Assembly: GCA_964016885.1 (NCBI GenBank)
Contig: OZ024742.1
Location: 66,340,001-66,404,000, forward strand
DNA: 64,000 nucleotides
Direction of reading: 5' to 3'
Origin: Eledone cirrhosa
Taxonomy: Eukaryota
Under the pieces are notes generated by a model that saw only the letters and a program-made list of their open reading frames with translations, was not told the origin of the DNA and did no database searches. Position 1 is the stretch's first letter, and every line of letters begins with the position of its first letter. Made by a program: the position numbers and the translations under genes. This document shows, in pieces, positions 1 to 62,565 of this stretch.

Positions 1-1062
1 GCAGGTCTTTTTTTTCTCTCTCTCCTCTACAATTTCACAGAACTTACGTTCACTGAATTTACAGACTAGATCCCTTCTTCCTCCCGTTAGACCTGTACGG
101 AATTCCTTCCTTGCTCACATTCCAACCAGGTTTGATGGTCTTTATTCTCTCTCGTTCACGATTTCACCGAATTTATATTCATGGAAATTTGGGACTTGAC
201 TCCTTCATCCTCAATTTTCGTTGCTTCACCATATTTGTTTGTTTTACTCTCGTGTCCCCTTTATTTACGTGTTCCAACGACTTTTTTTAGCCGTTGCTCG
301 CACCAACCGGAGGTATATAGTCTTTAAAGCGATGAAATACCAATGATGGTTGGAAGATCACTGATGAAGGACTAACTTTATTCATATGTAACCCATTAGC
401 AACGACGTAGCACGTTTATTCTCATATTTACACATATTTTTTCCCTCGCTGTGACGCGTCTATTACGTTCTTACGGCTTCCTCTTTCTCTGTATCTTTAC
501 CCTCTCTAGCAGCCACTCTCTCTGTTAGCCTCTTCCTCACCCTTCACTCACTCATTCTCTGTTACTACCTCTCCTCCTCCTCCTTCTTCCCGTTTGACCT
601 GTGCGTAATTCATTTCTTTCGCACCCTTGGTCAGGCAGGTCCCTTTTTTTCTCTCTCTCGTCTACGATTTCACAGAACTTACGTTCACCGAATTCACAGA
701 CTAGATCCCTTCTTCCTCCCGTTAGACCTGTACGGAATTCCTTCCTTGCTCACATTCCAACCAGGTTTGATGGTCTTTATTCTCTCTCGTTCACGATTTC
801 ACCGAATTTATATTCATGGAAATTTGGGACTTGACTCCTTCATCCTCAATTTTCGTTGCTTCACCATCTTTGTTTGTTTTACTCTCGTGTCCCCTTTATT
901 TACGTGTCCCAACGACTTTTTTTAGCCGTTGCTCGCACCAACTGGAGGTATATGGTATTTAAAGCGAGGAAATACCAATGATGGTTGGAAGATCACTGAT
1001 GAAGGACTAACTTTATTCATATGTAACCCTTTAGCAACCACGCAGCACGTTTATTCTCATAT
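1..1062 (+). repeat. Direct tandem duplication, period about 635 bp (1-~428 repeated at 635-~1062); pLTR-like non-coding unit ending in (TA)n
   Basis: GCAGGTC...TCACAGAACTTACGTTCAC... at 1 and 635; copies stay colinear with scattered substitutions until the (TA)n at ~1062. Both contain GAAATACC...CTGATGA. Confidence 0.85.
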
Positions 1063-4269: not shown

Positions 4270-4416
4270 AAGAAAGTGTGGACCATAACGCACCAGAATA
4301 CTCGATACTTAGAGTAGTAGAGTGGGCAATAGGAAAAGAGTTAGGACCCCGACGGCTGAGCTCGGATCTAGCTGTCGAAACAGCCGGAGCTCAGACGTCG
4401 GGCCCCCGACTCTTTT

Positions 4417-4420
<4 letters not shown>
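4267..4420. mobile_element. Family A mini-foldback in (TA)n
   Basis: GGACCATAACGCACC...AGGAAAAGAG...GACGGCTGAGCTC followed by inverted GAGCTCAGACGTC...CTCTTTTCCTA. Confidence 0.75.
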
Positions 4421-4486
<66 letters not shown>

Positions 4487-4487
4487 C

Positions 4488-5237
4488 ATGAAATATATGG
4501 AGAATAGAAATGGCTGTGTAGTTGCTATTTAAAGTAACTTAAAATGCAGTGGGAATACGAAGAAAGCAAGAACAGGAGGGTGAGGGGTGTCATCATCAGT
4601 TGTCTACTGGGGGTCTAGGATATTTCTACGCTTTAAAGACAAGATACCACTTCACCCCAAGGCGTAAATAACTGGAAAAGTTATTGGAAAAACGAAGGAA
4701 AGAGGGAAGGAAAGCAAAGGGGGAGAAAAGAGAAACAATAACAAAACAACGAAAAAACCCCACAAACCGAGCAATATGCGAGCAACTATAGGTGGGAAAT
4801 CCAAGACCACTCGATAATAGAACTTAAATTCGAGACTGAGTAATCGAGAGACACCAGACACACGTCTGATGGCAGCAGTTGTAAGTATGACGAGAACTGC
4901 TAAACGGTCAGATGAGGGGGTGAAAGTGAGAGGGAGAAAAGGAGAGGAAGAAAGTGGAGTAAGAGTAGATAGGGAGAAAGGAAGGGGAAGAAAGAGGGAG
5001 GAGAGTAGAAGGTAGCGAAATAGGTAGGTAGAAGGGGGAGAAAAGAATGGCCACAGCGAAAAACATGATGAAATATATGGAGAATAGAAATGGCTGTGCA
5101 GTTGCTATTTAAGGTAACTTAAAATGCAGTTGGAATACGAAGAAAGCAAGAACAGGTGGTGTTATTGGTGGTGGTGGTGGGGGGGGGGGGTCCTCATCAG
5201 TTTGTCTACTGGGGGTCTAGGATATTTCTACGCTTTA
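4488..5237 (-). repeat. Partial direct tandem repeat, period about 580 bp (4488-4635 / ~5068-5237); pLTR-like
   Basis: ATGAAATATATGGAGAATAGAAATGGCTGTG...TCATCAGTT...GGATATTTCTACGCTTTA occurs twice. Shares the TAAAGCG..GAAATA...CTGATGA layout with the repeat at 1-1062. Confidence 0.8.
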
Positions 5238-22785: not shown

Positions 22786-23398
22786 TAATATATATATGTA
22801 TGTATATATATATATATATATATTAGTTTAGCGAGGTTTTTTATATGAAATCGTGTGTCGAAACAGATATTGTTATATTTGGGAAGGGTCATATTTGCGT
22901 AATATTGCCAGAATTAATAACAGAACACACTCACTGTTTGGTTGGTTTTCGCTTCTCGCTGTCTTTTATATCTGCGATCTAACTTACTCGGTCCTCAGTG
23001 TTGCCATTGACTGACCGGCGGTCAAAAATAATACAGATACAATATAGACACAAACACATATATATAGTTTACATAATTTACATAAATCTTTCGTTGCACA
23101 TCTGCAACATCGTCAGTGGTGTTATATTCATTGTTCCTCCTGTTGTGTTGTATGTCTACGCCATTTTTTTATTCAGTCTGTCTATATATTTATTTATTTA
23201 TTTGCTTGTTTGTTTATCTTATTTTATATTGTCTTCTTTGCGCATGCGTTTGCGTGTGTGTATAGTGTTATGTGTGATGTGTAACTAGTGTGTATAGTGT
23301 TGTGTCTGCTGGGTGACTAGTGTGTGTTTATGTGCTTGTTGTTATTGTGCTTGTGTATGTATTTATTTATCTTATTTTATTTTATTTTATTTACTTAT

Positions 23399-24739
23399 TT
23401 ATACTTCTCTTAGGTCAGTGTTGTTTGTTTGGGTGTTGTTGTTGTTCCACTCATTCTTTCTGTTTAGCTTTGGTCTTCTAATTACTATTTCACTGGCCTC
23501 TCTGATTTGCCTATCTGCTGGGTCATTCCTATGTTTAGATATTATTCTAATTTCTATGTTGTCTATGTTACCGTCATGTTGTTGTCTAGCATGTTCGTAT
23601 AGTACTGACCCGTTTTTTCGTCCTTTTAGTTCCCCCCAGTGTTGGTCTATCCTTTCACCTATGCTACGAGCTGTCTCACCTATGTATGTTGTTGTCATGT
23701 TTCTGCAAGTACCCTCTGTACATCTTATGCTATAGACTAGGTTTCTAGTTTTACAGTTTATCCGGGGGTTCACCTTACATATGATACATTTCCTATTGGT
23801 ACAGTGGGTTTTCTTAAAAGGGTAGGTTTTGCTGATCAGGGATTTTATGGTGGTTCCTGGCTTTTCTACCACCTTTATTTTTAAGTGGGTCTTTCTCAGG
23901 GCCTTTCTACACTGGTTAGCTAATTTCCCTCCAGGGGTGGCGTCCACAAACATGACACTCTGATATCTCTGGTTGTTGTACCATGATGTGGCCTTCCCTA
24001 TCTTATGTCTAGCCCTATCTAAGCTATTCCATGATTTGCTCCTGTATAGTGGGCAAATTCCTTTCATGTCCAGTTCTATGAGGGTCTTATACTTTTCCAT
24101 GGCTCCTTCGTATACTCTGACTCTGTCTCTTTGGTTATAGCCAGAGAACTGCATGCGGTTGATGAAGTGTTGGATGTGTCCTTCCATTTCTGTTGGGTCG
24201 CACATGCTGGACACATTCTTCATCACTCGTACCAAATCTGCGATCAGAATATTAAACTTAGCACTACTGGACATTGCTGAGTGTTTGAGTATCAGGTATT
24301 TGGAGGCCATGGGTTTAGCATAGTGTGAGTGGAGAATTTGGGCTCTCTCGTCTATAGTGTTAATCCAGAGTTCTGTGTCTAATACAAGTAGTCTATTGTT
24401 AGGGTGTTTGGAAGGGAAGTCGATAGTTACAGTTATACTCTGGTGTATGGAATTAGCTATCTGCTGGATGCTTTCCATCGTGCTACGTTCTAAATAAAAC
24501 TTGTTAGTGCTCTCTAGTGGGGGTGTTCTTATAACTATATTGATATCGTCTACATAGCAAGAGTACATGATGAGGTCTATGGAGCTTTCATTAAGGAGAT
24601 CTTTAAGTCTCCTTTCCCACCATACCATGAAAAGGTTGGCAACATCACCAGCTATGCTGACGCCGATGGCTGCTCCCTCGTTTTGGGTGTAGATTTTCTC
24701 ATTGAACTTAAATATGTGGTCCTTTAGGGTAGTTTTGAT
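23399..24739 (-). CDS. PLE polyprotein C-terminal part: RT motifs 4-7, thumb, Cys-rich linker, GIY-YIG endonuclease; open frame truncated at the 5' end
   Basis: The frame extends 37 codons upstream of the tracked ATG (IKTTLKDHIFKFNEKIYTQNEGAAIGVSIAGDVANLFM), then YVDD, LDTELW, HYAKPM, SGY, CTNRKCIIC, NLVY..C...C..YIGETAR..ERIDQH, EA, LN. Confidence 0.9.
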   Translation of the reverse strand: MKTTLKDHIFKFNEKIYTQNEGAAIGVSIAGDVANLFMVWWERRLKDLLNESSIDLIMYSCYVDDINIVIRTPPLESTNKFYLERSTMESIQQIANSIHQSITVTIDFPSKHPNNRLLVLDTELWINTIDERAQILHSHYAKPMASKYLILKHSAMSSSAKFNILIADLVRVMKNVSSMCDPTEMEGHIQHFINRMQFSGYNQRDRVRVYEGAMEKYKTLIELDMKGICPLYRSKSWNSLDRARHKIGKATSWYNNQRYQSVMFVDATPGGKLANQCRKALRKTHLKIKVVEKPGTTIKSLISKTYPFKKTHCTNRKCIICKVNPRINCKTRNLVYSIRCTEGTCRNMTTTYIGETARSIGERIDQHWGELKGRKNGSVLYEHARQQHDGNIDNIEIRIISKHRNDPADRQIREASEIVIRRPKLNRKNEWNNNNTQTNNTDLREV

Positions 24740-25100
24740 AAACTGTAAAACTAGAAACGTAGTCTATAGCATAAGATGTACAGAGGGTACTTGCAGAAAC
24801 ATGACAACAACATACATAGGTGAGACAGCTCGTAGCATAGGTGAAAGGATAGACCAACACTGGGGGGAACTAAAAGGACGAAAAAACGGGTCAGTACTAT
24901 ACGAACATGCTAGACAACAACATGACGGTAACATAGACAACATAGAAATTAGAATAATATCTAAACATAGGAATGACCCAGCAGATAGGCAAATCAGAGA
25001 GGCCAGTGAAATAGAAATTAGAAGACCAAAGCTAAACAGAAAGAATGAGTGGAACAACAACAACACCCAAACAAACAACACTGACCTAAGAGAAGTATAA
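24737..25100 (+). pseudogene. Inverted duplicate of the GIY-YIG coding segment
   Basis: INCKTRNVVYSIRC...YIGETARSIGERIDQH; differs from the minus-strand copy by two residues. Confidence 0.85.
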
Positions 25101-25621
25101 ATAAGTAAATAAAATAAAATAAAATAAGATAAATAAATACATACACAAGCACAATAACAACAAGCACATAAACACACACTAGTCACCCAGCAGACACAAC
25201 ACTATACATACTAGTCACACATCACACATAACACTATACACACACGCAAACGCATGCGCAAAGAAGACAAAATAAAATAAGATAAACAAGCAAATAAATA
25301 AATAAATATATAGACAGACTGAATAAAAAAAATGGCGTAGACATACAACACAACAGGAGGAACAATGAATATAACACCACTGACGATGTTGCAGGTGTGC
25401 AACGAAAGATTTATGTAAATTATGTAAACTATATATATGTGTTTGTGTCTATATTGTATCTGTATTATTTTTGACCGCCGGTCAGTCAATGGCAACATTG
25501 AGGACCGAGTAAGTTAGATCGCAGATATAAAAGACAGCGAGAAGCGAAAACCAACCAAACAGTGAGTGTGTTCTGTTATTAATTCTGGCAATATTACGCA
25601 AATATGACCCTCCCCAAATAT

Positions 25622-25755
<134 letters not shown>

Positions 25756-60704: not shown

Positions 60705-60897
60705 TATATATATCTGTAAATACATATACATATATATATATATATACACACATATATATATATATATCTGTAAATACATATACTTCGGCCCTTGAAAAAA
60801 TTGATTCCACTTCATTCACTCTCATCTCAGGAACAGTTTTGGATAGCGCTAGTTCGTAATTTAAATTCAAGAATTTTATATTCTTCGAATGAAAAGA

Positions 60898-60980
60898 ACC
60901 TTCTGACGAGAATCTTTCTTTGCAACGAAGGCCGTATGGTCTCCGTTTATTTTTGGGATTCGAAACCGATCGGTAAAGGT
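60898..60980 (+). ncRNA. Type I hammerhead ribozyme, array copy 1
   Basis: ACCUU CUGACGA GAAUCUU [loop with internal hairpin] GGGAUUC GAAAC CGAUCG GUA AAGGU. Confidence 0.9.
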
Positions 60981-61382
60981 AACTATAGTAGGTAAAGTCA
61001 ATTTTTTAAAATTTATTTTGAAACTTTTTCATTATTTGCTAAACCTTGTTTATATATGTTCTGGCTCGTTAATTTATTAACCTGCCATTGAACCACATTG
61101 GCATTTGGTTGGACAATACATGCGTCCCTTAGCGCCTTGTGCGTGAAGGAACACATATCCTATTATTACTACTCTCCTCTATTGTTGAGAGACAAATTGG
61201 GTCGTTCCGACTGCTGCTAGTGATAGTTGCGGCCGGTTTGACCTACCTCCCTCTGCCTCTATCTTTACTTCGGCCCTTGAAAAAATTGATTCCACTTCAT
61301 TCACTCTCATCTCAGGAACAGTTTTGGATAGCGCTAGTTCGTAATTTAAATTCAAGAATTTTATATTCTTCGAATGAAAAGA

Positions 61383-61465
61383 ACCTTCTGACGAGAATCT
61401 TTCTTTGCAACGAAGGCCGTATGGTCTCCGTTTATTTTTGGGATTCGAAACCGATCGGTAAAGGT
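61383..61465 (+). ncRNA. Type I hammerhead ribozyme, array copy 2
   Basis: Same sequence as 60898-60980. Confidence 0.9.
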
Positions 61466-61867
61466 AACTATAGTAGGTAAAGTCAATTTTTTAAAATTTA
61501 TTTTGAAACTTTTTCATTATTTGCTAAACCTTGTTTATATATGTTCTGGCTCGTTAATTTATTAACCTGCCATTGAACCACATTGGCATTTGGTTGGACA
61601 ATACATGCGTCCCTTAGCGCCTTGTGCGTGAAGGAACACATATCCTATTATTACTACTCTCCTCTATTGTTGAGAGACAAATTGGGTCGTTCCGACTGCT
61701 GCTAGTGATAGTTGCGGCCGGTTTGACCTACCTCCCTCTGCCTCTATCTTTACTTCGGCCCTTGAAAAAATTGATTCCACTTCATTCACTCTCATCTCAG
61801 GAACAGTTTTGGATAGCGCTAGTTCGTAATTTAAATTCAAGAATTTTATATTCTTCGAATGAAAAGA

Positions 61868-61950
61868 ACCTTCTGACGAGAATCTTTCTTTGCAACGAAG
61901 GCCGTATGGTCTCCGTTTATTTTTGGGATTCGAAACCGATCGGTAAAGGT
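61868..61950 (+). ncRNA. Type I hammerhead ribozyme, array copy 3
   Basis: Same sequence as 60898-60980. Confidence 0.9.
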
Positions 61951-62352
61951 AACTATAGTAGGTAAAGTCAATTTTTTAAAATTTATTTTGAAACTTTTTC
62001 ATTATTTGCTAAACCTTGTTTATATATGTTCTGGCTCGTTAATTTATTAACCTGCCATTGAACCACATTGGCATTTGGTTGGACAATACATGCGTCCCTT
62101 AGCGCCTTGTGCGTGAAGGAACACATATCCTATTATTACTACTCTCCTCTATTGTTGAGAGACAAATTGGGTCGTTCCGACTGCTGCTAGTGATAGTTGC
62201 GGCCGGTTTGACCTACCTCCCTCTGCCTCTATCTTTACTTCGGCCCTTGAAAAAATTGATTCCACTTCATTCACTCTCATCTCAGGAACAGTTTTGGATA
62301 GCGCTAGTTCGTAATTTAAATTCAAGAATTTTATATTCTTCGAATGAAAAGA

Positions 62353-62435
62353 ACCTTCTGACGAGAATCTTTCTTTGCAACGAAGGCCGTATGGTCTCCG
62401 TTTATTTTTGGGATTCGAAACCGATCGGTAAAGGT
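62353..62435 (+). ncRNA. Type I hammerhead ribozyme, array copy 4
   Basis: Same sequence as 60898-60980. Confidence 0.9.
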
Positions 62436-62505
62436 AACTATAGTAGGTAAAGTCAATTTTTTAAAATTTATTTTGAAACTTTTTCATTATTTGCTAAACC
62501 TTGTT

Positions 62506-62565
<60 letters not shown>

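Follow-up and report, generated by a model that had tools for sequence, protein, structure and literature searches.

The hammerheads of animal non-LTR retrozymes and of Penelope pseudo-LTRs are reportedly type I hammerheads of circular order. Alternative hammerhead forms are represented, in the portion of PMC13725137 available, by citations of Eckert et al. and of one other paper. Type-SGC hammerheads (HRIMA-1 and its variants) were obtained from metatranscriptomes, and the available parts of the original report place none of them in genomes of known organisms (Eckert et al., 2023, PMC10085705). The same parts give cleavage rates of 0.007-0.19 per min and a scheme of six permutations, which assumes that the strand of stem II stays beside CUGANGA in an uninterrupted block (PMC10085705).

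Among Penelope-like elements, the Naiads were reported to be devoid of canonical hammerheads, eight of their consensi being marked 'half core' in the portions of the study consulted (Craig et al., 2021, PMC8557442). These portions also give (TA)n targets, partial tandems and inverted truncated partners as the insertion marks of Penelope-like elements, call the cephalopod Naiads long inactive and annotate Naiad_Ovul as 'no pLTR' (PMC8557442). Here we compare with these systems a short repeat of the Eledone cirrhosa genome that carries a predicted ribozyme of unusual wiring.

Position and architecture of the predicted ribozyme

The window, by which we mean the whole stretch of 64,000 nucleotides that was analysed, contains on its minus strand at 4593-4666 every base of the hammerhead core (C3-U4-G5-A6-N7-G8-A9, G12-A13-A14, A15.1-U16.1 and H17), in the order site, GAAA, CUGANGA, together with four intact helices of 5, 6, 5 and 6 pairs (Table 1). 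From 5' to 3' the strands follow each other as leader (stem II), P0, stem III, H17, stem I, linker, stem II, GAAA, stem III, bulge or kink, P0, stem I and CUGANGA. A first-pass annotation had placed an element of reversed order at 4593-4658. The 66 nt that it quoted match the minus strand exactly from 4658 to 4593, but the element starts at 4666, because its first 5 nt (4666-4662) form a leader complementary to the 5 nt that precede GAAA (4631-4627). The AUC triplet of the cleavage site lies where it had been put, at plus-strand 4643-4645 (4645-4643 as read on the minus strand); the bond predicted to be cut joins 4643 and 4642. The outer stem had been drawn as GGGGU/ACCCC, an alternative register that ViennaRNA does prefer, but the register homologous to the other families pairs 4660-4655 with 4612-4607. 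That first reading is supported but incomplete: it left stem II unaccounted for and drew no link to the Naiad elements.

Table 1. Features of the predicted ribozyme and its host repeat, in window coordinates
Feature	Position	Strand	Remarks
Host repeat, family B, 1.3 units in partial tandem	4485..5237	-	No ORF >50 aa; 3' end at (TA)n run 4419-4484
Upstream truncated ribozyme copy	5194..5237	-	Begins 7 nt after predicted cut
Family A ribozyme copy, same wiring, regular kink-turn	296..367	+	Second copy 635 nt downstream
5' leader strand of stem II	4662..4666	-	Replaces positions 10.1-10.5; 5 Watson-Crick pairs with 4631-4627
Outer stem P0, 5' strand	4655..4660	-	6 pairs (one G-U) with 4612-4607
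P0/stem III loop, 5' side	4649..4654	-	3 bases longer than the regular kink of sister subfamilies (alignment)
Stem III, 5' strand, last base U16.1	4644..4648	-	Helix 3 pairing
C17, predicted cut 4643/4642	4643..4643	-	By structural analogy; A, C or U, never G, in 25/25 rows
Stem I, strand after predicted cut	4637..4642	-	Helix 4 pairing
Stem II, strand before GAAA	4627..4631	-	Pairs with leader, not with strand after CUGANGA
G12-A13-A14 core and stem III 3' strand (A15.1 at 4623)	4619..4626	-	GAAA invariant in 25/25 rows
3-nt bulge, GA, P0 3' strand (4612-4607)	4607..4618	-	Alignment, helix counts
Stem I, strand before core	4600..4605	-	Helix 4 pairing
C3-A9 core (CUGANGA)	4593..4599	-	C, U, G, G, A invariant; A6 in >=90% of rows; position 7 is U or C

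A descriptor that requires site, GAAA and CUGANGA in this order together with stems III and I was run against shuffled sequence, a check which the same annotation had proposed. It gave three matches in the window, whereas 200 block-wise dinucleotide shuffles averaged 0.055 and never exceeded 1. The 150 of 199 Rfam matches listed for the window at E <= 1 included no hammerhead family and were rejected as driven by microsatellites only. Readings as Pistol, twister, hatchet or HDV-like ribozymes were dropped as well, the hammerhead core accounting for all the conserved bases. Nested folding energies, which are uninformative for a predicted pseudoknot, were unremarkable (z of -1.6 for the window copy, 0.0 and -0.4 for two other family B copies), and in the minimum-energy nested fold of the window copy (ViennaRNA) upstream bases pair with the start of the core.

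Covariation of the four helices

Subfamilies were collected by pattern searches and from 60 regions along the contig C1, and the contigs of three runs of one study were used only for subfamily variants. The window copy was aligned with 24 of the 29 cluster representatives (25 rows), three 5'-truncated representatives and two with deletions being omitted. Over the four helices 86.2% of 565 cells are paired and 18 of 23 pairs have changed on both sides. None of 500 shuffles reached this value, slid registers paired in 34-39% of the cells, and the covariation score of 0.50 compares with 0.22 for shuffled and at most 0.15 for slid alignments. One of the helix-count controls ignores the kinship of the copies, and the structure was derived from the very sequences counted; on the other side, two rows of the main B subfamily are one column out of register in leader and P0, which works against the count.

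The changes are spread over all the helices. Helix 1 (leader and stem II) is paired in 79.7% of its cells, with two-sided change in three of its five pairs, and P0 (helix 2) has changed on both sides in all seven. In stem III (helix 3, 96% paired) the pair A15.1-U16.1 is kept in 25/25 rows and pair 15.2-16.2 covaries, and in stem I (helix 4, 95% paired) two-sided change affects six pairs out of six. Stems I and III flank the core and covary, as they do in hammerheads, and variation inside the core is confined to position 7, H17 and pair 15.2-16.2, precisely the positions that hammerheads let vary. The earlier observation of a reversed-order architecture kept with other stem sequences is therefore borne out in many more than the two subfamilies originally compared. 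The proposal that replaced stems with retained pairing reflect a selected RNA structure finds support in this covariation, chance being excluded by the shuffles and by a genome-wide control (see below).

Pairing of stem II

In an ordinary reading stem II would be completed by the strand that follows CUGANGA. We have looked for it in the alignment rows and found 38.4% of positions paired versus 36.8% after shuffling, that is, chance level, and among 61 copies sampled in their order on contig C1 none had more than two pairs directly after CUGANGA. This candidate was rejected on both counts. In the same 61 copies a leader helix of at least five pairs is present in 48, against 0/61 for a control window of equal width. 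Leader and partner also change together, from UCGC/GCGA in family A to ACGC/GCGU in B and GGCGC/GCGCC in C. Helix II below the A9-G12 pair is present and built by the 5' leader, the closing pair 10.1-11.1 being unpaired in 11/23 rows. This pair, which lies beside G12, is G-A in the majority of family B, and families A and B may therefore be slow or decayed. As judged from these sequences, the predicted hammerhead core of the repeat is open between A9 and stem II, and stem II is paired by the 5' leader.

Comparison with type-SGC and canonical hammerheads

Hammerheads of types I, II and III share the cyclic order C-G-S, which is not the order of this fold. Its blocks follow as S, G, C, and, as far as the parts of PMC10085705 consulted go, it resembles type SGC in the order site, GAAA, CUGANGA, in all the core bases, in the short linker between stem I and stem II and in a fourth helix with one strand between stem III and stem I. 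That a helix ties stem I to stem II, as in type SGC, is supported by the covariation of P0, its role being deduced from connectivity. The two differ in that the SGC stem II strand comes 1-2 bases after CUGANGA, whereas here nothing directly 3' of CUGANGA plays this part and the strand lies 5' of everything else. Another difference is that our fourth helix is joined to stem III via a bulge or kink-turn (PMC10085705, in part). Moreover, type SGC was in none of the known genomes covered there, whereas the leader-wired relative accounts for about 18,000 chromosomal core matches in this genome alone.

In SGC-1, read by eye from the oligonucleotides in the portion of the supplement consulted (PMC10085705), a stem II strand, one base and a strand of the contact helix follow the core on its 3' side. 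The same module stands at the 5' side here, and the fold would therefore, on its connectivity, be a type SGC circularly permuted and opened between A9 and stem II. P0 likely fills the role of the contact between stems I and II, its far end being tied by a few bases to the stem II leader and to stem I. In the literature searched, mainly outside subscription journals and without bioRxiv supplements, we found no prior description of the leader wiring. Viral contigs were also considered and discarded: of 124 loci among the matches listed, a single one satisfied the two-stem descriptor, but neither its leader nor its outer stem was convincing, and we attribute it to chance.

An ordinary type SGC would also be obtained if the core were completed by the leader of the next unit, across tandem units or on a circular monomer, with about 500 nt between A9 and stem II. 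Many copies are partial tandems, Penelope hammerheads have been described as acting as dimers, and on a circle both readings are the same molecule. However, only 1-3 nt separate the local leader from P0 and about 20 nt separate it from the site, which should favour local folding, and Naiad_Ovul, annotated 'no pLTR', has the local form (by eye, in the portion of PMC8557442 consulted). We regard completion by the next unit as very unlikely and retain the local leader as the partner of stem II.

The joint between P0 and stem III

A kink-turn consists of a 3-nt bulge followed by tandem G-A/A-G pairs. It is regular in family A and non-standard in B' and C. The first-pass annotation had called it irregular in the window copy, and rightly so, since the subfamily of this copy has three extra bases opposite the 3-nt bulge and no regular kink. 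The variant with a regular kink makes up most of the contig depth in three runs of one study (place 4617, with loose ends at 4646). In some C-type copies the GA pairs have been exchanged for ordinary pairs, which together with the irregular window copy means that the kink-turn is not a defining part of the fold; it is optional, one solution for the P0-III joint.

The regular kink-turn of family A could also suggest a non-catalytic structure that merely resembles a hammerhead and binds a protein, as a kink-turn, a box C/D-like site or a recognition element for the RT. CUGA resembles box D and UGAUGA resembles box C, which would speak in the same direction. But the GA pairs of the kink are lacking in several subfamilies and several Naiads, position 7 is variable, and GAAA, U16.1 and a base other than G at position 17 are kept in exact hammerhead geometry, which makes such a structure extremely improbable compared with a hammerhead.

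The host repeat and its copies

The repeat units around the window copy are non-coding, flanked by (TA)n and about 565-600 nt long, of Penelope type. Unit length is 565 nt in family B and 636 nt in family A, with no ATG frame of more than 50 and 70 aa, respectively. A partial tandem of ~580 bp had been noted at this locus, and indeed the 3' flanks are 580 nt apart (at about 4487 and 5067) and the cores 602 nt apart. Among the copies, partial tandems are frequent, as are inverted truncated partners, and a (TA)n end follows GAAA at 63-162 nt in 26 of 30 family B copies chosen by their core anchor. The short non-coding unit, the partial tandems, the inverted truncated partners and the (TA)n targets agree with those of non-autonomous Penelope-like elements of the retrozyme type, to which the repeats would belong by their sequence features. 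Families A and B are related, not independent, with 16 of 18 nt in common inside the ribozyme; outside it only short matches were found (E >= 0.012).

A first look at the genome gave 1629 candidates of family B and 938 of family A, of which 40 each were scored; the best family A copies are 98% alike. The genome-wide motif search suggested by the annotation, carried out with the degenerate pattern GAAA...CUGAYGA, yielded 17,937 matches versus 4 for a reversed control, a number that counts cores and not insertions.

Several other repeats were noted along the way. One repeated family A insertion recurs at a spacing of about 28-31 kb (L070-L073, C1:399.29-399.38 Mb), suggesting a larger tandem duplication. 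The window also has a short repeat with an internal palindrome beside (TA)n (1137-1250 on the plus strand, and 4270-4418), found likewise near the B/C copies L003, L006, L016 and L092. Other Penelope-type repeats carry hammerhead-like cores in canonical order (CUGANGA, hairpin, GAAA) at 1551 (minus), 23116 (minus)/25380 (plus) and 31307 (minus), the 23116/25380 pair lying inside a long inverted repeat (22867-25629). At 60781-62511 there is a perfect 485-bp tandem of 3.6 copies with TA-rich flanks and CUGACGA in each unit.

Truncations around the predicted cut

Among 144 copies that were not selected for their 5' side, 108 extend at least 60 nt upstream of GAAA. The other 36 are short matches, 22 of which we judged true truncations; the remaining 14 looked like indels or were unclear on inspection by eye and were left out. 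Relative to the predicted cut, 15 truncations fall at -4..+16, five at -25..-5 and two at -46..-26, an excess over the next two 21-nt windows upstream with one-sided p of 0.02 and 0.0009. Seven arrays end at -4..+16 among the 30 anchored B copies, which overlap with the 144 (p about 0.01, with exposure summed by hand), and at the head-to-head junction of locus L268 both arms start within 1 nt of the predicted cut. A listing of enriched truncations was not counted because subfamily B' matches the pattern without truncation. Most ends lie at +6..+11 or at -4 beside TA-rich sequence, not at +1, so microhomology between TA and the (TA)n target is a live alternative, and the clustering is a weak sign of cutting.

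The fold might be real and have been selected in Naiad ancestors, families A and B (the window copy included) being now slow or dead and carried in a repeat recognised by the RT. The frequently unpaired position 11.1 would fit, as would the competing minimum-energy fold of the window copy, the 108/144 copies that run through the site and the fact that the window-copy subfamily lost its regular kink yet multiplied (a 34-nt anchor of it has 58 exact matches in the genome). Nevertheless, circular or uncut templates should give copies that span the site, compensatory changes are still accruing in all four helices among A- and B-type subfamilies, and the core bases remain fixed. We consider the loss of activity unlikely as a general explanation. 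For the families as a whole self-cleavage appears probable, and for the window copy we would put it at slightly better than an even chance.

Naiads and other Penelope-like elements

The leader wiring, with unrelated stems and with G10.1-C11.1 kept, is present by eye at the 3' ends of at least nine of the 54 Naiad consensi in the part of the supplement covered (PMC8557442). This reading took in 45/62, 15/23, 15/43 and 15/25 places of four core spellings and missed motifs broken across lines, hence the lower bound. The consensi are Naiad_Amil, Aacu, Anas, Plae, 4_Dst, Obim and Ovul, together with one from Clytia and one from Morbakka; the names of the first seven rest on the FASTA header that follows and on the order of the sheet, those of the last two on file position only. 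They belong to cnidarians, an acanthocephalan, an ostracod and octopuses, and in Naiad_Ovul the leader is, by eye, local. The split form is not universal among Naiads, since several nematode ones (again by eye, in the same portion) follow the canonical order and have a long stem II loop. One Darwinula Naiad in the same supplement has GAAA before CUGACGA and, by eye, a contiguous stem II seemingly after the core, a possible ordinary type SGC or intermediate.

The repeats thus share with Naiads the (TA)n targets, the partial tandems, the inverted truncated partners and, for those nine or more consensi read by eye, the wiring of the ribozyme (PMC8557442, in part), and differ from them in having no reading frame. 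A narrow pattern for an RT motif gave no match to a Naiad reading frame (N-terminal GIY-YIG, C-terminal RT) in the source genome, where the pattern of the Octopus Naiad ribozyme found two old copies, one of them with two weak relatives. The likeness to Octopus Naiad motifs would itself point to a cephalopod. All 20 of the long GIY-YIG loci fetched (150 were scored) are elements with the RT before the endonuclease, and in none of them was the split ribozyme found within 2 kb of the frame end. Intact frames of RT-GIY-YIG elements (844-1096 aa) were observed at L190-L192, with no canonical-order core within 500 nt of their ends. Intact RT-before-endonuclease elements may be the movers of the repeats, and the ribozyme of the latter would descend from the 3' UTR of a Naiad.

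Animal retrozymes are similar in that they consist of short non-coding units in tandem, each with a single hammerhead, and are likely mobilised in trans by Penelope-like enzymes; the difference is that their hammerheads, like those of Penelope pseudo-LTRs, are of type I and circular order. In a keyword look at the portion available of bioRxiv 10.64898/2026.07.22.740005, 'pseudoknot' was absent and 'permut' occurred only in the title of a reference.

Proposed mechanism

Beside the sequence, copy number, covariation and repeat anatomy described above, we infer a three-dimensional fold, cleavage and a role in transposition. The hammerhead core, with its order site, GAAA, CUGANGA, its leader-paired stem II and its predicted multiple pseudoknots, probably cleaves itself after C17. 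Folding would start during transcription with leader, P0 and stem III; stems II and I would then form as crossing helices and assemble the usual active site. Read-through or tandem transcripts, cut once in each unit, would yield monomer RNA, which may be reverse-transcribed in trans into (TA)n sites, the repeat behaving as a non-autonomous Penelope-like element.

Biological significance

We find it probable that this is a seventh natural connectivity of the hammerhead, with the core opened between A9 and stem II, and that it is the working ribozyme of many Naiads in four or more animal phyla and also of their non-autonomous offspring, which number in the tens of thousands, the young families of this genome being moved by a different, RT-before-endonuclease Penelope clade that has adopted them. 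If true, two views would be overturned, namely that the blocks of the hammerhead are uninterruptible, which leaves six possible permutations (PMC10085705, in the parts consulted), and that Naiad elements have no hammerheads (PMC8557442, likewise). The split wiring would explain why descriptor and Rfam searches miss such motifs, and it could have been reached from type SGC by re-opening the chain. Animal chromosomes would thereby be seen to carry, in a plausible role, a non-circular permutation so far met only in environmental RNA whose hosts are unknown.
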